The position numbers were made by a program, and so were the translations under genes. A stretch of DNA of 54,632 nucleotides. Origin: a virus. Its lineage: Duplodnaviria > Caudoviricetes. Where the stretch lies: positions 1-54,632 of the IMG/VR virus record IMGVR_UViG_3300004282_000003; one strand, 5' to 3'. The notes under the pieces are model-generated. The model was not told the origin of the DNA. It worked only from the letters and a program-made list of their open reading frames with translations, and did no database searches. Below are positions 18,928 through 50,365 of the stretch, in pieces. The first letter of the stretch is position 1. The number at the start of each line of letters is the position of its first letter.

Positions 18928-19515
18928 TTACTCCTTACTAATAAATTGTACTGGTAATTTCCATATTGGTAATTTCTTCAAGAAAGGCTTTACTTCCCTT
19001 TCCCATGATAACCCACCACAACCACATCCAGGTCTAGGAATTATAACTCTTTTCCATTTAAGAGCTTCCATTTGAGTTTGAAGACTGAAACAAGATTCTC
19101 TTATTAATTCTAAATCAGATTTATTGTATGGTGAATTTTTTGTTGGAAATGAAACTAAATAAGTCCCTGCATCTTTGTGTACAATACTTGCTCCATCACC
19201 AAATCTTAAAGAGATTGCAATTGCTTCTGGTAATTCTGGATATAGTTCTTTTGCTTCTTTTGCAATTCCTTTTCCCATTATATTTTTACCATTAACTACT
19301 TTTCTATTTGTACAAATACAAATTGCATTTGCTTTTCCAATATAATTCCAAATATCTCCTGTTATTTCTTTTGGTAAATCTCTTTTTAGTTCAATTTTTT
19401 TTGGTTTCTCTTTTTGAAAATATTTTTTAAACCGGATTAAATATTTCTTTGACTGTGGTTCCATTCTCAATAATTTGATTCTTGTAGTTTTCTTTTTCAG
19501 TTTTAAGCGTTTCAT
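18928..19515 (-). CDS. Macrodomain (Poa1p/TARG1/DarG-like) protein
   Basis: CTN...MGKGIAKE, SFPTK and PRPGCGCGGLSW; basic N-terminal extension. Confidence 0.8.
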   Translation of the reverse strand: MKRLKLKKKTTRIKLLRMEPQSKKYLIRFKKYFQKEKPKKIELKRDLPKEITGDIWNYIGKANAICICTNRKVVNGKNIMGKGIAKEAKELYPELPEAIAISLRFGDGASIVHKDAGTYLVSFPTKNSPYNKSDLELIRESCFSLQTQMEALKWKRVIIPRPGCGCGGLSWEREVKPFLKKLPIWKLPVQFISKE

Positions 19516-19951
19516 TATATTCATCCCATATTTGTTTGAATATTGATTCAAATGGTTCTTTTACTTTTTTCAATTCTCTCCATTCATTATTTAAATTAAG
19601 TATATAAAATTCTGTCATTGTTCTTGGATTTTTTGTTTCCATATAACAATCTGGATAAATTGTAATCTTAAATTTATTTCCATATAATTCTATTTCTTTT
19701 GGACCGTATATAAATGCATGATGTATTGGAAGAAAAGTTACTACTGAATTATTTTTCTTTCTTACTATTAATTTTATTGGTTCATCATTTTTGATTATAT
19801 AAGCTAATGTTCTTGAAATTGTTAATTTCTTTACAAATACTAATTCTCGTTTTTTCACTATTTCAACTATTTCCCTCATTGTTAGATTCACATGGTCGTA
19901 TCTTTGTACAAGACGTTCCTTTGAGTGCTGGTTTAGAGCTTTCTTCACCAC
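19427..19951 (-). CDS. Hypothetical protein
   Basis: HSKERLVQRY...VVTFLP; packed in the operon. Confidence 0.55.
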   Translation of the reverse strand: MVKKALNQHSKERLVQRYDHVNLTMREIVEIVKKRELVFVKKLTISRTLAYIIKNDEPIKLIVRKKNNSVVTFLPIHHAFIYGPKEIELYGNKFKITIYPDCYMETKNPRTMTEFYILNLNNEWRELKKVKEPFESIFKQIWDEYNETLKTEKENYKNQIIENGTTVKEIFNPV

Positions 19952-27530: not shown

Positions 27531-28749
27531 TATTCTTATTCCTTTCCATTCAAAATCATTTGATTTTCATCTTCAATGTTTCTAAGAACCAAATCAATTG
27601 CATTTTCCAATGACACTGAACTTTTTGCATTTATTGCTAGATCATTTGTTGTTTCAATTTCCCAATATTGATTGTAGAAATTATAATCAATCTTTAACTT
27701 TAAATCTTTAATAATTTGAAAATAATCTTTTTCCATTTTATTCTCCTTTTACTATTTTAACTTTTTGTGGATAGTAAAAATAACCTTTTGCTCTTTCATT
27801 AAGTTCTCTACAATACTTGTTTGCTTGTTTTCTAGTACCATCAAAAACACAATGTATTTCCCTTCTTGTATTACCTGGAACAACATAATAAATAGTTTTC
27901 ATCATAATTACAATCATTTCCCTAATCTCCTTCCTTTTAGAGTTCTTTTAAATTCCCTTCTTCTTTCTTCTTTTAGTTCTTCCCTAACAATATCCATTGG
28001 TAAATCTGTAATTCCAGTTTCATCTAGTATAATATTTCTTTGTATTTTGTCAAGTGAATTTTTTAATTCTTTAAACTCTTCTGAATCAATAATTGTTAAT
28101 TGTGTTAAATCTTCTGTATCATATTCAGAACCAATTTCCATTCCATATTTAACAAAATCATATTGTCCTAGTGGTACTCTTATTTCTCGAAAATACCTGA
28201 ATGATCTTTTCATTTTTATTTCCTTATATAATTAGCTACTGCTAAAGCTAAATTTTTATGTTCTTCTAATATACAATTTACAGTTGGAGTTTCTAAATGC
28301 TTTTTTACTGAATATTTACTTCCATAATAAAGTTTCCCATTTTCTTTCCACCAAGCTACAGCACATTTTAAAACTTCAGCAATTTCAAGATTTCTATCTC
28401 TTTCCATATTTTTTCCTTTCTAAGAAAGACTTAAAGTTCTCTCACCCTTTTCTTCAATTTTATCAATTTCTTCTATCCAATATCTAGGTTTGGTTTGTCT
28501 TCCTGTTAATATTTTTAAATTTTTCATCTCCAATCTATCTATTTCTTTTACGTCAGTAAAATAATAATGTGTAACAACTAAATCTCCACAATCTCTTTTT
28601 ATTTCTTTCAATCTTCCAATTAATCTACTAATTTTCATTCTTTATTCTCCAATTTTTTTACTCTAATTTCTAGTTTAACTACCCAAAAAATCATACAGAC
28701 CATCCAAACAAATTCTAAAATTGGTTTTATTTTGGGATTCCAAATCCAA

Positions 28750-29013
28750 TCAATCATAGTCATGTTTCTTTCCTTTACATTTGGGTTCAATTCTACCCTT
28801 TACTCTAAATTGATTATCTAAAATTCTATAATCACCATCACTCCATCTTTCAATTTTACCAACTCTTTCATATCTATTGTTATAAATTACTCCTTCTTTT
28901 ATAAATCCTTTTTTATTATATTTGGTATCGTAAATGTCATCTTCTGATATACTTATATCACACTTTATAAATAAAGCAAGCAAAAAGATTATAAATAGCA
29001 ATATTTTTTTCAT
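28750..29013 (-). CDS. Secreted small beta-repeat protein
   Basis: Signal peptide MKKILLFIIFLLALF; three IYD/N...G.I repeats. Confidence 0.55.
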   Translation of the reverse strand: MKKILLFIIFLLALFIKCDISISEDDIYDTKYNKKGFIKEGVIYNNRYERVGKIERWSDGDYRILDNQFRVKGRIEPKCKGKKHDYD

Positions 29014-29594
29014 ATTGAGAAATCCCTATAAATAGTAGTTGTTTTTCCTTCACATACTTCCAAACATCTTTTTTTATAGCCATTACCAATATTAATTCCA
29101 TTGTAAAGCAAATAAGCCTGTGACCAATTTTTACTGGTATATTTTGTTTTGTAGCTTCCTTTTCCTTTTCCAATTTGAATTTTATAACATAAAAATTTAG
29201 GAAGAGATTTTATAAACATTGGTATTTTATTTTTCATTTTCTTTTTCCTCTTTCATATATTGGTTGATTTCTTGTGCTTCGATAAACAACTCTTGAAAAC
29301 ATAAACTACAATCAGAATGTTCTTCTATTCCAACATTTTTTCTATAATTTTCATTATGACAATTACAATTACATTTTATTCTGTGTTTTTCCATTCTTCT
29401 CCAACCTCTTCATAGGTTTTATTATATAATTCTTCTAATTGTTCACATCTATAAATAGTACATGCTGTAATATAGCTTATTTCATACCACTTATGGTTTC
29501 CACTTAAAACATCTAACAAAGCAAATTGTAATTCTTTTATTTTTTTATCTTTAATATCAAAAACTTTTTCAACCTGATCTGCAATTTCTCCCAT

Positions 29595-30821
29595 TTAATT
29601 CTCCTTGCACATTGATAAGGTTTTCATGTTCATCCAATTCTTTCCAACACTCCATTCAGTTGCTAATTCAACTTTCTTTGGAATTGGTAAATTATGATTA
29701 ATCATTTCATAATCAACTAATTCCATTAATTCCAATGCTTCTTTTTTGTAAAACATAAAGAATATAGAATCATGTATTTGGGTACACATATAACTTTTCA
29801 AATTGCTTTGTAGTAGTTTCTCTTCAATTCTAATAATAGCATCTAGGAGAATATGGAAACTACAAGATTGAATTGGAAAGTTAAATATTTCATTTTGTGT
29901 TAATGGATAATTCCTTCTAAATCCTAATGGAGTTTCTATATAACCATTTCCATAATAGAATTGTAATTGATCTTCTTGCCATTCTTTTAAACCTTTATAT
30001 CTATTGAAAAATTCTTTTTGTGCTTCTGCAAAATGCTTTTCTGAATATTCAATATAAAATTGATTCCAAGGATCTTTATTGTAAGGAGATCCTTTCCTAT
30101 ATTTTTCTCTTACAAAGTTTTTATAAACATCAAACTTTCTAAATTCTCTTGCTATAGATATATTGCTAGCACCATAAATATTTGCAAATGTCCAATTGTT
30201 TTTTACAATATATCTTTCATCATCATGTAACTTTTTTACTTCTGGTAATTCATAATTCCATCCAAATATAACATTAGTCCAATGACTATGCATATCTAAA
30301 TCTTCATTTAAATCTTTTAATAATTGTTTATCACCACTTAAATTACCTGCTGTTTTAACTTCAGCACCTTCATAATCAACTTCTGCTAATAACCAATCTG
30401 GTCCTAAAGGAATAATTGGTTTTCTTAAAATCTTCCAACTCATTCCTTTTTTTATATCTCCATGTTTAGGTTGATTTTGAATATTTGGACTTGAACCAGA
30501 ACTTCTTACAGTTTCAGTAGTATTTAACCATAAATCAGGGTGTATAAAACTTGTTCTAAAACCTTTATATCTTATTCCTTCTTGAACCCATCTTCTCAAT
30601 TCAGCAAGATAGTTATTTTTAGCCTTTTCTAGTTTCCTATATTCCAATAACAAACTACAAAATTTAATCTTCTCTTTTTCAGCATAATGTAGAATGACAG
30701 ATTCATCTACACTTGCTTTCTTTTCACCGGATTTACCCCCTGCTGTTTCTTTTATTGGTTGAAGATTTAAATGATTGAATAGAAAATCTGAAACTTGCTG
30801 TGGACTACTTAGATTAAACAT
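29595..30821 (-). CDS. polA: Family A DNA polymerase, polymerase (thumb-palm-fingers) subunit
   Basis: FNLSSPQQV, PNIQNQP, motif A EVDYEGAEV, motif B RYIVKNNWTFANIYG, NFPIQS and motif C QIHDSI. Confidence 0.9.
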   Translation of the reverse strand: MFNLSSPQQVSDFLFNHLNLQPIKETAGGKSGEKKASVDESVILHYAEKEKIKFCSLLLEYRKLEKAKNNYLAELRRWVQEGIRYKGFRTSFIHPDLWLNTTETVRSSGSSPNIQNQPKHGDIKKGMSWKILRKPIIPLGPDWLLAEVDYEGAEVKTAGNLSGDKQLLKDLNEDLDMHSHWTNVIFGWNYELPEVKKLHDDERYIVKNNWTFANIYGASNISIAREFRKFDVYKNFVREKYRKGSPYNKDPWNQFYIEYSEKHFAEAQKEFFNRYKGLKEWQEDQLQFYYGNGYIETPLGFRRNYPLTQNEIFNFPIQSCSFHILLDAIIRIEEKLLQSNLKSYMCTQIHDSIFFMFYKKEALELMELVDYEMINHNLPIPKKVELATEWSVGKNWMNMKTLSMCKEN

Positions 30822-32439
30822 CTTTTTTCCTCATAGTCAATTTTCTTTTAATTGTTGTAATTATATTTATTGGTTCCTCTTCATCATCTGTATCATTTTT
30901 CTTTGGCTTTGTAAATACTTTATTCTTATTTTTTTCTAAATAACTTATAATATCTGGAAGATTTTCAATTTGGTCATATGTTTTTCTTAATTCACTATCA
31001 AGTAATTCTTCTAAAGTATCCAATTCAAATTCATCAACTGGCAATCCATTCCATGACATATTTGCAAATACTTCATGGCCTTTTAAGATAAAGTCATAAC
31101 ACCATCTAAACTTTTCAGTTTTATCTAACCAATTATCTAACAATTCATAATTGGCAAATGATGTTATTGAATCTAATCCAGAATATTGAATAAGATCATC
31201 TGGTGGACATAAATGAATTGTATTCTTTTTATCATTCTTATTTTTTATTTCTAAATACTTTTTTACTTTCTTATTATATTTTGGTAATCCAAATCTAACA
31301 AGGTTTTGAAAATCAAGAGAAGTGCAACCACCCCGTTCATCAATAACATGAGTAGCCAGCATTGTATCAAATGTATTTCTAATTATATTTCCTCTTGGAT
31401 TTAAATGATCTTTAAACGCAAAATCTCTTGGATTACTATCTTTAAATACCCAACGTCTAGTTACCAATTCTTCATATTTTACATTTTGAATTATAGTTAA
31501 AAGATCTTCTCTATTCAATAAATCAAAAACTTTATTTTTAAGTTTTGGAATTGGATCTTCATATCTTGGAATATAAATAACCCAAGCTTTTTTTCCAATT
31601 GCAAATGACATACACCAAACTTCAAAATTATCATCATAAGGTTTTAAATTGGTAGTTTCATAATCAAAAGAAAACTTTCCTGATTCTTCTATTTGCTTTT
31701 GCATTTTATCAAAATCATCTATATCTCTAATTTGTTTTATAGTTATTCCTGAAAGAACCTTTCTTTTCTTTAGAAAATTATTTACATATTTTCTTTTATG
31801 CAATAATCTTTTATATGAATCAAATATTCTTTTTAAATCTTTTTCTAATACAATTGCATTGCCAGGATTTCTTAAAATATTTGCCGGATGATTAGTACAA
31901 AATACTAAACAATTAAATTCATAGTTAGGAATAATTCTGTTTCTCAGTTTTGTTATGCCTTGTTTTTCTCCAAATAGATTCAACACTGAATTAGATGCTA
32001 CTTCACCCAAACAGATAATTACATTTGGTTTTAATTGTAATAGTTTTTCTTTTAATTTTGTTCGGCAACATCTAACATAGGTTTCTGACATTTTATTATT
32101 TGGAGGTCTACAAGCAACAGCATTAATAATACTACAATGTTTAATATAATTTCTTTTTATTGTTGATCTTAATAATTGTCCTGATCTACCAACAAAATTT
32201 ATTCCTCTTTGTTGCTCTTCTTCCCCTGGTGCTTCACCAACAAAAACTAAACCATTTGGTTGTGGATTTCCTATTTCAGTTATTCCTATTGGTTTATTTG
32301 TAGAAGATTTTAAACCACATTTATTACAATCATAAATTACTTTCTTTTTAGTTTCCCCCTCTGGAATATCAAAATAAAAATTTCCTTTTGATTCTATTTC
32401 TTTTGGTATTCCTATAATCCTTTTTAATGTAGTTTTCAT
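30814..32439 (-). CDS. Family-4 UDG domain fused to PolA 3'-5' exonuclease (N-terminal subunit of split polymerase)
   Basis: UDG motifs CNKC, VGEAPG, FVGRSG, CRPPNN, HPA; exonuclease motifs FDYETT, QNVKYE, DTML, YSGLD. Confidence 0.88.
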   Translation of the reverse strand: MKTTLKRIIGIPKEIESKGNFYFDIPEGETKKKVIYDCNKCGLKSSTNKPIGITEIGNPQPNGLVFVGEAPGEEEQQRGINFVGRSGQLLRSTIKRNYIKHCSIINAVACRPPNNKMSETYVRCCRTKLKEKLLQLKPNVIICLGEVASNSVLNLFGEKQGITKLRNRIIPNYEFNCLVFCTNHPANILRNPGNAIVLEKDLKRIFDSYKRLLHKRKYVNNFLKKRKVLSGITIKQIRDIDDFDKMQKQIEESGKFSFDYETTNLKPYDDNFEVWCMSFAIGKKAWVIYIPRYEDPIPKLKNKVFDLLNREDLLTIIQNVKYEELVTRRWVFKDSNPRDFAFKDHLNPRGNIIRNTFDTMLATHVIDERGGCTSLDFQNLVRFGLPKYNKKVKKYLEIKNKNDKKNTIHLCPPDDLIQYSGLDSITSFANYELLDNWLDKTEKFRWCYDFILKGHEVFANMSWNGLPVDEFELDTLEELLDSELRKTYDQIENLPDIISYLEKNKNKVFTKPKKNDTDDEEEPINIITTIKRKLTMRKKDV

Positions 32440-35038: not shown

Positions 35039-36899
35039 TCGGTCATGGTATTCTTCTAATTCACTTTGTTTAATGAATACAGGAAACAATGAATCAATCT
35101 TTATTCTCACTCTACGGTGTAAATGCAATATGCTATAAGCAATTTTTCCTTTCCTTTTTGTTTTCCATTTAAGTTTATTATAATTCCAATCTACTCCATT
35201 TGCAAGCAAAATCTCACCCTTTTGTAATTCAGGATGTTTATTACTATGAACACCCTTTAACATTAATCTTTTAGGTTTTTTAATTTTCTTTTGTTTCATT
35301 TTCTATCCTTTGAAATTATCTTTTTGTTGTCTATATTCTACCCAACATCCAGACAAATATTTCTTATTATCATCTTCATATTTTCTATTCTTTTGAAAAT
35401 ACCAACCAACAGGATTAGGAGAACCATCTGGAGAATCTACATAAATTTTGCTAGTACATTTTCCATATTCACTAACTAAAAACTTAAACAATTTTCCTTT
35501 CTCATTTATATTGTAATCAGTTTTATACCAATCAATTTCATTTACTCTATAATGTTCTGTTTCATTTACCCATGTTTCTTTAATCCAAATGTTATTATTC
35601 ATTTTACTTTATCCTCTATATTAAAAGTTTTTAATTCATTTAAAATTTTATTTGCTTCACGAATTAAATAATTTTCTAATGGTTCATATTCTTCTGTTTC
35701 CTCATTTTGTTTTCGTTCATCATCATCAGAGTTCCATATTTGAAAACCAAGAAAGTTTATTATTACACAATAACCATCAGTTTTCATTTCAAATAAAGAA
35801 CCTAGAAGAAAACTATCTTCTGTAATTTGTTCTTCAAATATTTCATTAACCTTTTGAAGAGAATCTAATACCTCATTTAAAAATCCTTTATATATCATTA
35901 TATGAAATCCTTTCTATTAATCTAAATGATTTTGTAAGAATAACAATTGGATAAAATTCACTTGAAAATATATTAGTTTCTTTATGTTCTACAATTCCTT
36001 CAGCATATTGAATTTTATAAAGAGAAAACCTTGAATATGGAAAATCATAAATCATAGCTTTATAAAATTCTCTAGCTTCATTTATATCTTTTATAATACA
36101 AAATCCTACTTCTTGATTCCAAACATCTTTTTTCCAATTAATCCAACCACAAATTCCATTTTCTTTTTTATCTTTTGAAATTGGAATTTTATAAACATGA
36201 AATGGTGGATATAAGTTATTTTCTTCAGTACAAATATTTTCAAACAACTTGTAAGCAATTCCATAAACTTTTGTTCTTATAGATTCTGGATGAATTGTAT
36301 TGCACATTATTTTATCCTTTCTATTCAACTGCTACAATAAAAGATTCTCTAATATCCCATTTAAGTTCTTGTTGATTAAATTTTTTACCAAGTGATTCTT
36401 CATTTAAAAGCATATAACTAAATGGTTCTTCTTTTGGATAAGCACCTAAAACAGATAAACATGACAAAGTTATTTGAACAACAATATAAGTTTTATCTTC
36501 TATAATTCTTTTTGTATAATTTTCCATTATCTTTACTAACTGACCAATTTGAAATTTTGGTTTTGGAAATGTTTCTGAGAATTTCATAATTTCAATTTCC
36601 TTTCATTTCATAAGTTCTAACAAGTTATAATCCCCTTCATAATACCTTGCCATTTTCTTTAGTTTCTGATGATAATAGTTTGCAAGCAATTCCCAACCTT
36701 GACTGACCAAAGCGTAAGGACGGCCAAATATAGGTGCTTTTTCATCATATAACCAGACAAACAAATCCGGCCTATATTGTTCTGTTATATCTTTAATATC
36801 ATTTAACCATTCTTGAGGAACAGCATAATCAAAAACTTTTCCTGTTAAAAACAAATCTTGTTTACACAAATCTTCTTTTGTCATTTTCAATTTCCTTTC

Positions 36900-37643
36900 T
36901 TATTTTACAAATTGCTTAACATAATTTATAAACATATCTCCACTCATTTCATTTACATGACAAATAATATTTTGTTTTTTATCTTGATTTTTATAAGACC
37001 AATCACAACCGCAAATCACATTTCCCTTACAATTTAAATAAATTGGAATATCTCTTATTTCTAAATCTTCTTGTGAATCATCAATAATATCTTCAAGTGT
37101 ATAACTAGAATTTATCAATTCATGTTTATTATCTCTACCACCAATTCCATTTTCTTTTGCCCTGCCTTCATTTATTGTATTATCTATTGTATTATCTCCA
37201 TATCTTTTACGTTCATATTTTGCACTTGTAAACTTAAACACTTCTAATTTCTTTATATTTTCTTTTGTTATTTCATCATGGTAATAGTCATTACTATAAC
37301 TCAATGCAGAAATTTCGTTCTCATCACAATAGCAATATAATCTCATTACTGCAAGCAAAAAATCATTAGTTACAACTTTTGCATTTGTAGCTATGTAAAA
37401 ATTACCAATACCAACTTTATATTTCTTAGCCATATCAACTATTGTATTAATTTTATGTGGTGCAATGCTAGGCTCACCACCTGAAATTGTTAAACTAGAA
37501 ATATAACCAACTTTTGAAAAGAAAGTTTCAATATCATAATCATATATTTCTTTATTTTGTGCTTTTCCTCTTAAACAATGTCCACACTCCATGTTACATT
37601 TTCTTGTTATCTCAATTATGACATTGTTAATATCAAGTTTCAT
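36900..37643 (-). CDS. Radical SAM protein
   Basis: CNMECGHC (CxxxCxxC), SGGEP and ATN. Confidence 0.85.
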   Translation of the reverse strand: MKLDINNVIIEITRKCNMECGHCLRGKAQNKEIYDYDIETFFSKVGYISSLTISGGEPSIAPHKINTIVDMAKKYKVGIGNFYIATNAKVVTNDFLLAVMRLYCYCDENEISALSYSNDYYHDEITKENIKKLEVFKFTSAKYERKRYGDNTIDNTINEGRAKENGIGGRDNKHELINSSYTLEDIIDDSQEDLEIRDIPIYLNCKGNVICGCDWSYKNQDKKQNIICHVNEMSGDMFINYVKQFVK

Positions 37644-44448: not shown

Positions 44449-44877
44449 ATGAGAATAGACTTCAAAAAACGCCCAAAATCGACTAGCAAGCAGTCACCTC
44501 CTGGCAAGCAGTCACCTCCTGGCAAGCAGTCACCTAATCTTCCCATGTTAGCAAGTGACTATTCGCCATATTCAGGCATGATTTTGACAAAGGTGGGATT
44601 AATTAAAGAAATCAAGTCGAGAATGTACAAGTTTTTGTTTAATTGGATATGCAGTCAAGTCGCAATGAGTACGAACCACAAAGATCTTTTTTCCGTGATA
44701 GAAGCAAAAACAATTGCAAGTGAATTAAACAAAGTTTTTAATAAAGTTATGACACTTGCAAGCGATAAAGAAAATAGAACAACAAAAAAAGAACTTCAAT
44801 TGTTAGTTATAAATTCATGTAAGGATATTGCCTCTTGCATGATAAATGAATTAAGTTTGTTAGATATTGACTTATAA
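44449..44877 (+). CDS. Hypothetical protein with KQSPPG repeats
   Basis: AAAGGA RBS; 18-nt unit gcaagcagtcacctcctg, about 2.8 copies at 44486-44535. Confidence 0.6.
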   Translation: MRIDFKKRPKSTSKQSPPGKQSPPGKQSPNLPMLASDYSPYSGMILTKVGLIKEIKSRMYKFLFNWICSQVAMSTNHKDLFSVIEAKTIASELNKVFNKVMTLASDKENRTTKKELQLLVINSCKDIASCMINELSLLDIDL

Positions 44878-47962: not shown

Positions 47963-47982
47963 ATGGGGGATTTCTCCCCCAT
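47963..47982 (-). terminator. GAAA-tetraloop hairpin
   Basis: Minus strand ATGGGGGA-GAAA-TCCCCCAT, then TACTTTTT. Confidence 0.7.
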
Positions 47983-48022: not shown

Positions 48023-48304
48023 TTATGGATTAGCTGCTACCTTATCAGCTAATTTCTGACGTTCAGTAGCAAATTCAGTAGCAAATGTTTGAGCTTGTTC
48101 CAACGTAACAGCATCTTGTACACCAGCTACCAATTTATCAATTAATACTAATACAGAAGCAACTACACCTTTAGTTGCTTCTACTTCAGCCGAAATTACA
48201 TCAAAACCTAAACTCATTTTATACTCCATTAATATTAGGTGAATTAGTAAATTGTCCACTTTTTTGTGTAATTCATCATCACGGAATAACCAAGATAAAA
48301 TCAA
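48023..48304 (-). CDS. Small Ala-rich helical phage protein
   Basis: TTG start after AAGGGGG; a second in-frame start (MSLGFD) has its own GGAG. Confidence 0.6.
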   Translation of the reverse strand: MILSWLFRDDELHKKVDNLLIHLILMEYKMSLGFDVISAEVEATKGVVASVLVLIDKLVAGVQDAVTLEQAQTFATEFATERQKLADKVAANP

Positions 48305-48361
48305 TAGAATAACCCCCTTTCCTTATTTATTATAGTTTCTTTCTCCTTTCTATATTTATTT

Positions 48362-48752
48362 AGTTCTTTGCGACTCATTACATTTCTGTACCTTTTCTGT
48401 TCCCTTCTATACCTTTTCACTTCCTATTCATACCATTCATTACCTTTTCATTTCCCTTTTGCTCTATACACTACCTTTACCCATCCCCACAGTTTAGCTT
48501 ACTACCGTTTCCCTTTGAAACGATTCAACTCGTAACCATTTCTTTTCTAGTCGAAACCCTTCTGCTCTCCACTTTAACTATTCGTTACTTTTCTTTTCTG
48601 ATCCTTACAATTACATATTCTTTCCCTTCTGCTCTCCACTTTAACTAAACGATACCTTTCTTCTCCAATCCTCACAATTACATATTCTTTCCCTTCCAGA
48701 CCTTTCGTTTCTCCGCTTTCTCGTTTCGTTACTATTCTATACCTTTTCTTTT
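48362..48752 (-). ncRNA. 5-nt-periodic (GWN-NN)n non-coding array, putative guide RNA locus
   Basis: No ORF of 60 aa or more in the gap. The minus strand parses as GAA/GTA/GTT/GAG/GAT triplets alternating with variable dinucleotides, with occasional 1-nt slips. Confidence 0.7.
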
Positions 48753-48765
48753 TATAACTTCCCTT

Positions 48766-49389
48766 TTATTTTTTCCCTCCTTTTTTCTTTTTACTAATTT
48801 TACCATTAGAAATTGTTTCCCATGTAAAACTTCCATTACCACCACCACGCCAACAACCAATTCCTTGATCTCCACCATAATCAAGAATTGATTCTATTTT
48901 ATCCCAAGTTAATTCACTATGTTTATATAAACGTAAAATAAATTCAATTGAGGTTCCTTCATTAACATAATCAGAACAAGCTAAAGATATTCTTTGTCCT
49001 CTAGCTGTTTGTCCTATCATTGGACGTTCTATTTGTCCATCTGGTTTTTCTTTAATCCAAATAAATCTTGGATAGACAAATAAAAAATCTACAACTTTGG
49101 ATCTTAATGCTTTAACTTTTAACATATTTTTACATACATTTGCTGCGTGTTTTAAAAATCCCTTAATTTGATAATTAACAAAATAAATACCTTCTTCATC
49201 TGTATGAAAAATAGTTTTACTTTTGCGTTTTTCTGTAGTTTCTTCTGGAAGCATTTCTAACTCTTCTTCCAAGTTTTCTGATTCTTGTCCTATGAATTGT
49301 GTATATAATTCTTTATTCTCTGGTGACATTGCTAGACATGGAGTTGTAAAAGTTATTTTAAATTTTCTTTCCTCAAATTCCAATCCCAT
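48766..49389 (-). CDS. Stand-alone Cas7/RAMP-like RRM protein
   Basis: First strand ITFTTPCLA, QIKGFLK (cf. RAMP SxKGxxR helix), thumb-like ERP..QTARGQRISLACSD, and C-terminal G-rich loop LDYG...GIGCWRGGGNGSF. Start ATG 49389 after GAGGG. Confidence 0.78.
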   Translation of the reverse strand: MGLEFEERKFKITFTTPCLAMSPENKELYTQFIGQESENLEEELEMLPEETTEKRKSKTIFHTDEEGIYFVNYQIKGFLKHAANVCKNMLKVKALRSKVVDFLFVYPRFIWIKEKPDGQIERPMIGQTARGQRISLACSDYVNEGTSIEFILRLYKHSELTWDKIESILDYGGDQGIGCWRGGGNGSFTWETISNGKISKKKKGGKK

Positions 49390-49408
49390 AATTTTTTCCC
49401 TCACTTGT

Positions 49409-49437
49409 ACTATAACTTTATTTTTACAGAAAGTCAA
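49409..49437 (-). promoter_or_regulatory. sigma70 promoter for the RAMP gene and array
   Basis: TTGACT (49432-49437)-17 nt-TATAGT (49409-49414). Confidence 0.7.
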
Positions 49438-49633
49438 CTAGCTATTTTTTTAAAATCAATTGGTTTTTGTCTTACTGATTTTAATATTTCTTCTATTGGT
49501 AAATCACATTCTGGAGAAATTTTATAAACTATGGTTTCATAAACTAACATACACTTTTTACATTTATAAATATGACTATTTTTAGTTGTAGTTGGTATAT
49601 AATTCATAAAACCATAACATTTAAGACATTGAT

Positions 49634-50110: not shown

Positions 50111-50365
50111 TTATTTACTCCTTAAATTTGCTTTTTTTAAATTTGCTTTTTTTAAATTTGCTTTTTTTGATATACCAAGGGATTCCATAATTCGTTTTTC
50201 AAGTTCAGATTTCATTGGGACAATTCCATTTAATGTTCTACTCAAAATAGTTTCAGATGGCGATCCTCCAAGAGCTTTTCGTAACTTCCACAATGGAATT
50301 TTTTGTTCTTTAATTATTTTATATAAAGGATGTTCAATTATTTCAATATCTGATATTAATTTCAT
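50111..50365 (-). CDS. XRE-like HTH protein with KKANL x3 tail
   Basis: LWKLRKALGGSPSETILSRTLNG; 15-nt unit aaatttgcttttttt x3 at 50124-50168. Confidence 0.6.
   Translation of the reverse strand: MKLISDIEIIEHPLYKIIKEQKIPLWKLRKALGGSPSETILSRTLNGIVPMKSELEKRIMESLGISKKANLKKANLKKANLRSK

Follow-up and report, generated by a model that had tools for sequence, protein, structure and literature searches.

Systems of the Viral Interference Programmable Repeat (VIPR) kind, described in two 2026 bioRxiv preprints (10.64898/2026.04.26.720920 and 10.64898/2026.04.26.720927), carry out RNA-guided DNA silencing. The type II system of Escherichia phage SUSP1 consists of Vipr, vap1 and four vrRNAs (PDB entry 36pp), and its repeat tracts are expressed as RNA that is purified together with the protein (10.64898/2026.04.26.720920). 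The stretch analysed here is the IMG/VR virus record IMGVR_UViG_3300004282_000003 (Duplodnaviria; Caudoviricetes; 54,632 nucleotides), which comes from an uncultured freshwater phage, has a G+C content of 27% and a CheckV completeness estimate of 53%, and is called the window below over its whole length. It carries, on the minus strand, a gene for a minimal Cas7-like RAMP protein followed by an array of pentanucleotide repeats. This locus is very probably a VIPR system, comprising a stand-alone vipr gene and a vrRNA array on the same strand. VIPR is only months old, and divergent loci such as this one map how far its pentamer code can drift.

The description of the repeat units in 10.64898/2026.04.26.720920 allows for ‘a related consensus’ (NNNGG, YNNNG or NNNNG), and the legend to its fig. 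S18 describes ‘staggered’ arrays; the cores GAC/NN, CAC/NN, WGT/NN and TGH/NN are named in 10.64898/2026.10.21.760802. Since the first preprint admits such a related consensus, the missing GGY excludes type II-like membership and not VIPR membership. Stand-alone vipr genes are mentioned in the same preprint, which names six vap genes for seven types; from this mismatch we infer that one type may lack a vap gene, a statement that the available part of the text does not itself make. Because VIPR, including non-GGY repeats and staggered arrays, is already in print, the locus is not a new system; it is of a known kind and belongs to a divergent and very large clade. An earlier note made from the sequence had correctly drawn the comparison with VIPR loci and had interpreted the Cas7/RAMP gene and the pentamer array in a way that is supported here; its assumption of an undescribed system does not hold, given the preprints.

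The locus shares with the SUSP1 type II system a minimal RAMP of ∼200 residues with a helix-1, a thumb and a G-x-G-x-W-R G-loop, tandem pentamer repeats that flank the gene on the same strand, and a position in the early/replication region of a lytic-type phage without cas genes or a CRISPR array. The units differ, being GGY-NN in SUSP1 and G-H-N-N-N in the window, as does their arrangement: runs of 9–16 units followed by a ∼40-nucleotide (nt) pseudoknot tail in SUSP1, whereas the modules of the window have 5–7 units and follow one another head to tail with 1-nt slips. The non-canonical and staggered VIPR arrays, as far as the available texts describe them, have in common with the window a period of five, a reduced or altered fixed part and a place beside Vipr-like folds, and the staggered arrays of 10.64898/2026.04.26.720920 agree with the slips seen here. 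None of the four cores named in the available text of 10.64898/2026.10.21.760802 equals the core of the window.

The Cas7-family backbone subunits of CRISPR effectors (Csm3 and Cmr4 of type III; Cas7 of types VII, IV and I) have a step of 6 nt, in contrast to 5 nt in the window, and use a spacer as the guide, whereas the guide here would be a tandem short repeat in a viral context, unaccompanied by CRISPR repeats, spacers or other cas genes. VIPR loci are small and free of CRISPR, lie in viruses or proviruses and often include a single accessory vap gene. The locus of the window has the form of such a minimal non-CRISPR locus in a virus, and the repeat-spacer array and further cas genes that mark class 1 CRISPR–Cas, among them those for Cas5, Cas6, the large subunit and Cas1/2, are absent. 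As the earlier note had stated, the window holds no other cas gene and no CRISPR array: PADLOC run on 100 open reading frames (ORFs) returned only weak helicase-domain matches from a phage DNA helicase, Tandem Repeats Finder detected no CRISPR-like array and Rfam gave no matches. Hammerhead-interspersed arrays were found neither in the window nor in the loci of 20 relatives.

The vipr product and its relation to SUSP1 Vipr

The vipr ORF encodes a RAMP-like protein, as the earlier note had recognized, and this protein contains the motifs ITFTTPCLA, IKGFLK and GIGCWRGGGNGSF. In an alignment of 11 sequences the residues K76-G77-F78-L79-K80, G172, G176, G178, G186 and F188 are invariant. An AlphaFold2 model built from a 59-sequence alignment (predicted local distance difference test score 90.1; predicted template-modelling score 0.83) has a β-α-β core, a long hairpin and a C-terminal loop-strand, in which β1 (residues 5–14), helix-1 with KGFLK (72–86), the thumb hairpin (118–142) and the G-loop (about 176–187) can be assigned. 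Foldseek comparison of the model with the PDB gave 142 matches at E ≤ 0.001, and all 43 of the 43 matches listed among ranks 1–50 are entries of CRISPR effector complexes. Ranked first is a type VII entry (9j9e_D1; E = 3.3e-7, template-modelling scores of 0.55–0.57), with Csm, Cmr and Cas7-11 entries next. The Vipr entries 36pp and 36PK do not occur among the matches listed, the library searched extending to 2026-04-08. The profile of the 59-sequence family, searched against PDB sequences, picks out Cas7 of type VII at E = 2.5e-5 and Csm4 at E = 0.002–0.005. This comparison with RAMPs, a check that the earlier note had proposed, shows the vipr product, as modelled, to have a Cas7-type RAMP fold.

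To place the protein relative to Vipr itself, we took as a reference the 195-residue ORF at 28474–29061(−) of the SUSP1 genome (KT454805.2). This is the correct choice because YNNGG tracts lie on its flanks and because the profile of its family matches PDB chain 36pp_D, ‘SUSP1 Vipr protein’, at E = 9.9e-82. The Vipr family in 10.64898/2026.04.26.720920 was defined by PSI-BLAST from X1U2U4. Alignment of the window family with the SUSP1-Vipr family by hhalign runs end to end over 181 columns (Prob 96.0, E = 4.5e-9), and the 11-sequence alignment gives Prob 92.6 and E = 4.5e-7. Reciprocal hidden Markov model (HMM) searches matched 160 of 160 and 120 of 120 sequences, with best E values of 1e-7 and 1.5e-7, compared with 0.085 and 4.5 for reversed-sequence controls. 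With all filters off, a targeted hmmsearch retrieved the Vipr ORF of SUSP1 (E = 6.7e-7 for one sequence), and direct BLASTP between the two proteins is significant only around the G-loop (E = 7e-4; 30% identity over 53 residues), where GVGDWRPRFGRF of SUSP1 aligns with GIGCWRGGGNGSF of the window protein. The hhalign and reciprocal HMM results establish homology to the Vipr family and show the predicted window protein, at the level of sequence profiles, to be a distant homologue of the characterized SUSP1 Vipr.

One could instead take the protein for a phage mimic of Cas7 that acts on host CRISPR, i.e. an anti-CRISPR or a crRNA hijacker, and the adjoining tract for an unrelated purine-rich leader. 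Such a protein would be in keeping with the nearest solved folds, those of Cas7 subunits from type III and VII effectors. The family, however, aligns full-length with Vipr, the tract is far from random (z = 7.1) and is kept as a feature across the family, and a CRISPR repeat-like element is absent according to Rfam and Tandem Repeats Finder. We regard a Cas7 mimic as highly improbable and retain the identification of the gene as vipr.

The family is large. The profile of 11 homologues matches 2387 cluster representatives at E ≤ 0.001, 738 of them at E ≤ 1e-30, and at least 520 confirmed relatives lie on viral contigs. PF03787 (RAMPs) is touched by four of the 59 family members (best E = 0.0046), and the ESM Atlas gave matches to unnamed viral clusters only. 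One 150-kb viral contig (L014, L019) has two oppositely oriented vipr copies, ∼27 kb from each other. The profile matches P0043 and P0079, family members of 458 and 432 residues, in two stretches each, so that there may be longer or fused forms. On another viral contig, at L026:744–793, a pistol ribozyme (Rfam RF02679), with 45.6 bits where the gathering score is 34.5, is located ∼2.2 kb upstream of a vipr homologue.

The pentamer array

Beyond the vipr stop codon lie ∼400 nt in which no credible ORF is present. The non-coding tract at 48362–48752(−), 391 nt long with a composition of A172 G121 T74 C24, is 75% purine and is as the earlier note had described it. On the transcribed strand the autocorrelation of G is 0.355 at lag 5 (z = 7.1) and 0.261 at lag 10 (z = 5.3), and none of 2000 dinucleotide-preserving shuffles attains either value; the periodicity test against shuffles that had been suggested for this tract thus gives a clear signal. 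When the whole window was cut into 2170 tiles of 391 nt on both strands, the top eight all overlapped the tract.

A dynamic-programming parse with phase tracking resolves the array into 77 pentamers, 69 of which are led by G and eight by A, close to the ∼75 units with 1-nt slips counted previously. They fall into 13 modules (six of six units, three of seven and one each of three, four, five and eight) separated by 12 single-base slips (seven g, three a and two t). The modular arrangement is also visible independently of the parse: base-identity autocorrelation peaks at lags 31 (0.51) and 36 (0.45), i.e. at 6 × 5 + 1 and 7 × 5 + 1, with a shuffle mean of 0.327 and a standard deviation of 0.023. 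In a first parse into 78 five-base units, position 2 was A in 39, T in 27, G in eight and C in four, and position 3 was A in 50 of the 78. The array consists of intergenic tandem pentanucleotide repeats, with a fixed and a hypervariable part, on the strand of the gene beside it.

A perfect 6-bp hairpin (CGUUUC-AAAGG-GAAACG, extendable to eight pairs) lies within one module at 48500–48521(−) and is absent from the array of the closest relative. A second, weaker period-5 signal at 36678–36721(−) was considered as a solo vrRNA and rejected, as it is within a coding ORF and is not purine-rich. The idea that every module opens with a canonical GGY was likewise dropped: it is true of several modules in the window (g+GTA...), and in the family at large modules open mostly with GAA or GCA.

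The conservation of the array was assessed at 83 loci, namely the best 80 of the at least 520 confirmed viral relatives and three GenBank phage records. A period-5 G tract was counted if it lay on the same strand within 1200 nt of the gene and reached a score of 11; inside the window, the same score has a maximum of 8.0 on the plus strand and a 99th percentile of 6.5 on the minus strand. All 83 of the 83 loci have such a tract, which answers the question, raised by the earlier note, of whether homologues carry arrays. The tracts mostly begin directly after the stop codon and in some loci lie upstream of the gene.

These data bear on the suggestion that the tract has its function as DNA (curved DNA, a signal for replication or packaging, or an array of protein-binding iterons, for instance), with the RAMP-like gene an incidental neighbour. 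The origin and packaging sites of this incomplete record are unmapped, and the locus is contained in no RNA run on record, both of which would suit a DNA element. The G periodicity is, however, strand-specific and always on the strand of the gene, the homologues of the protein are RNA-binding RAMPs, and in the SUSP1 system tracts of this type give rise to RNA that co-purifies with the protein (10.64898/2026.04.26.720920). We give a DNA-level function very little credence next to a vrRNA array.

Since many of the loci stem from one data set, the arrays were counted as 71 distinct ones, the array of the window included. Among their internal modules, 630 of 892 have 5–7 units; the gap between modules is a single base in 909 of 973 cases, and that base is G in 783 of the 909. 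At its end a module has a conserved unit and one further base. Conservation is higher in first units (G-x-A) and in last units than in internal ones, the last being G-C-A-A-N in most relatives and G-A-A-A-N in the window. Internal units carry 1.57, 0.39, 0.11, 0.04 and 0.01 bits at positions 1–5, and position 2 avoids G, its choice of A, C or T tracking the genomic G+C content (Spearman coefficient of 0.58 for C). In 54 clusters of near-identical modules the variable columns number 11, 39, 34, 46 and 55 of 332 each at positions 1–5, a difference that is significant over all five positions (chi-square P = 6e-6) and not among positions 2–5 (P = 0.13).

With strong constraint on the G alone, avoidance of G at position 2 and little information at positions 3–5, the unit of the clade is G-H-N-N-N, and the GWN/NN unit proposed for the window is the AT-rich form of it. 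The anchored G of that proposal is borne out (69 of 77 units); its conserved triplet is weaker than claimed and the GWN/NN register is not demonstrated, given the low information content at positions 3–5. The clade, with its 71 distinct arrays, represents a concrete variant of VIPR, with a single anchored G, three free positions, short punctuated modules, no evident accessory protein or structured tail, and replacement of the G1-reading residues with the Trp-Arg pair kept.

Array turnover, mechanism and targets

The closest relative (L088, represented by two metagenome contigs) encodes a protein that is 88% identical to that of the window. The two genes are identical at 517 of 570 nt (91%), whereas the arrays match at 218 of 400 positions compared with 212 ± 4 for shuffles. 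The exceptions are one common module and the last module together with the 3′ flank; an 87-column local alignment that includes 48314..48361 covers the last module and the flank. The downstream gene of L088 differs from that of the window, yet the 48-nt flank is kept. These comparisons show that the array turns over far faster than the gene.

Complete replacement of content between phages with 91% identical genes is what would be expected of guides under diversifying pressure. It speaks against the array being a decoy or sponge RNA by which the Vipr of competing phages is sequestered, or an assembly scaffold, in either of which the variable bases would have no target. All 83 loci moreover have the array next to a vipr gene of their own. 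A sponge is not without precedent, as satellite-encoded ‘solo vrRNAs’ are reported to redirect the VIPR of a phage (10.64898/2026.10.15.759431); the units are A-rich and of low complexity, and the target searches described below yielded none, although with 10–16 specified bases per module they had little power. On balance a sponge or scaffold appears improbable, and we continue to take the array for a set of guides.

Tandem Repeats Finder reports a repeat of period 67 at 48557–48696 (2.1 copies, 89% matches). The copies of this duplication differ at eight positions (48673, 48667, 48666, 48663, 48656, 48652, 48649 and 48648), all of which lie in one 36-nt module. Of the DNA contigs from four runs that were compared, those of three match the stretch without any difference, and one sediment run (X6) has variants, each of them a single contig at 80% likeness. 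One of these sediment-metagenome contigs joins 48357 to 49447 with 18 unrelated letters and thus lacks exactly the promoter, vipr and the array (48358–49446), and others have joints inside the array. This is a weak hint that the promoter–vipr–array cassette may be gained or lost as a unit.

By analogy with the systems of SUSP1 and P. fulva, the array would be co-transcribed with the gene and cut into short, module-sized RNAs, on which one Vipr protomer per pentamer would assemble into a helical filament. The conserved G would be flipped into the protein, between the retained Trp and Arg of the G-loop, and the variable bases could pair non-contiguously with double-stranded DNA of a competitor (a phage, satellite or prophage), the transcription of which would thereby be repressed. 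The guides of this clade would be the modules of 5–7 units (26–36 nt), set off by one additional base, usually G, and with conserved first and last units.

The code might also differ from the one-skip rule of GGY/NN. With one anchored G and three free positions, in modules of 5–7 units that correspond to one turn of the filament and are bracketed by conserved end units and an additional G, each protomer could read three consecutive target bases, so that a bulged guide would address a contiguous target of 15–21 nt; new guides might also arise by tandem duplication of modules and subsequent point divergence, of which the 67-nt duplication would be an example. The published pitch is three target bases per protomer, which a no-skip triplet reading would keep. 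We consider this combination unlikely, and state it for what it would imply: duplication and divergence of modules would be a Cas1-free route to new specificities, and a reading rule other than that of type II would give a very small programmable DNA binder a wider design space. Should the rule be that of type II, the locus simply adds another VIPR system, that of an AT-rich freshwater phage.

Targets were sought with exact patterns. The earlier note had suggested that the guides might be aimed at the promoters of the phage itself; in the array-masked 54.6-kb window, 11 modules of at least five units under 11 reading rules gave mean z values of −0.45 to 0.45 relative to letter-shuffled controls, so that self-targeting finds no support in this record, which is only 53% complete. 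Contiguous and gapped searches of IMG/VR, of the kind that it had recommended, came out at the level of chance or were uninformative. A search of 384 distinct modules against 1.15 Mb of homologue loci under 13 rules brought out no convincing enrichment for any rule. One rule stood out, namely position 5 and the following G with skip 1 (109 matches compared with 79.8 ± 7.0), and was rejected because its sites are GC-rich, codon-periodic and recur in homologous loci. In IMG/VR, reading positions 4–5 with skip 1, one of three modules gave 15 hits (16 specified bases) and the other two at least 119 hits each (14 specified bases), which is consistent with chance; no contig was common to several modules among the matches listed. 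Under the contiguous-triplet rule two 18-mers gave one and zero hits, also consistent with chance. The single hit, on a 12.6-kb contig, was discarded: its match stops short of the following triplet, and none of the other modules converges on the same contig.

A number of results weigh against the VIPR assignment. The vipr product has no significant Pfam or PHROG match, the 11-sequence profile gave no match when searched against the SUSP1 genome, and the solved SUSP1 Vipr chain scores only E = 0.56 with the family profile, so that support from sequence alone is modest. The residues reported to read the repeat in SUSP1 include H17, R138 and D177; the cryo-EM study (10.64898/2026.04.26.720927) assigns the reading of the first GGY guanine to H17 and D177. 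These two G1 contacts are not conserved in the window, H17 landing in an alignment gap and D177 being replaced by Cys in the window protein and by Gln in most relatives, whereas W178 and R179 are retained; R138 has no stable counterpart, being aligned to D140 in the family-to-family hhalign alignment and to C138 with the 11-sequence alignment. The units are not the canonical GGY/NN (YNNGG). The array and its flank have no significant RNA fold (z = −1.32; nine of 100 shuffles fold at least as well), and the same test detected no invariant 3′ tail or pseudoknot at the array. No conserved accessory gene and no recognizable vap, such as accompanies Vipr in SUSP1, stands beside vipr. The sequence TTGACT-17-TATAGT upstream is only a consensus match, compatible with a promoter and no proof of one. 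No target was found under any rule tried in the window, the 1.15 Mb of related loci or the exact-pattern scans of IMG/VR, and no sequencing run on record as RNA contains the locus.

Locus context and other features

The features of the locus are collected in Table 1. The sigma70 promoter that had been said to drive the gene is present as a sequence; its rating as a mere consensus match follows from the number of promoter-like sites in the region, which is no higher than in shuffles (8 compared with 8.4 ± 3.0). Terminator-like sites are more numerous than expected (5 compared with 0.3 from shuffles). A GAGGG ribosome-binding site precedes the vipr ORF on the minus strand. A small ORF (48023–48304), which has no homologue among the 86 other loci compared, sits between the array and the terminator-like hairpin; as the first strong terminator comes only after this ORF, the sequence would allow vipr, the array and the small ORF to share one transcript.

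Table 1. Features of the vipr locus and their positions in the window.
Feature	Position	Strand	Basis
Sigma-70-like promoter sequence TTGACT-17-TATAGT, upstream of vipr	49409..49437	−	10/12 consensus matches
vipr gene, 207-residue minimal Cas7-like RAMP	48766..49389	−	ORF, begins MGLEFEERKF
vrRNA array, 77 pentamers in 13 modules	48362..48758 (397 nt)	−	Phase-tracking parse
67-nt tandem duplication within the array (two modules, 36 + 31 nt)	48563..48696	−	Tandem Repeats Finder
3′ flank of the array, possible terminal element	48314..48361	−	Kept in closest relative L088
Intrinsic-terminator-like hairpin, first strong one downstream	47963..47982	−	8-bp stem, 5 GC pairs, then T-run

The surrounding genes form a phage replication and nucleotide-metabolism module with a primase, helicases, ribonucleotide reductase, UvsX/UvsY-like proteins and a DNA polymerase; the best match of the UvsX-like protein in a cultured phage is only 37.5% identical. 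Conservation of neighbouring genes does not reach past the closest phage, and no cas-like gene is kept among the neighbours of 86 loci. It is because of this lack of conserved neighbours that we describe the locus as a stand-alone form without vap.

Several observations elsewhere in the window are recorded here. The DNA polymerase occupies two adjacent, slightly overlapping ORFs, 29595–30821(−) and 30814–32439(−), which match consecutive parts of phrog_17 (positions 481–885 and 897–1236); the gene may be split or frameshifted, or the assembly may be in error. The ORF at 36900–37643(−) encodes a radical-SAM protein, an uncommon cargo for a phage, the N-terminal ∼90 residues of which match the PADLOC models of prokaryotic viperin (pVip; E = 2.3e-10) and phrog_1802. 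A further protein of 207 residues, encoded at 18928–19551(−), matches the PADLOC DarG model (E = 1.6e-16) and phrog_335 ‘phosphatase’, and may be a counter-defence enzyme against DarT-type toxins. Two perfect tandem repeats lie inside ORFs: a 15-nt unit repeated 3.1 times at 50122–50168, in ORF 50111–50365, which encodes KKANL repeats, and an 18-nt unit repeated 2.8 times at 44486–44535, in ORF 44449–44877(+).

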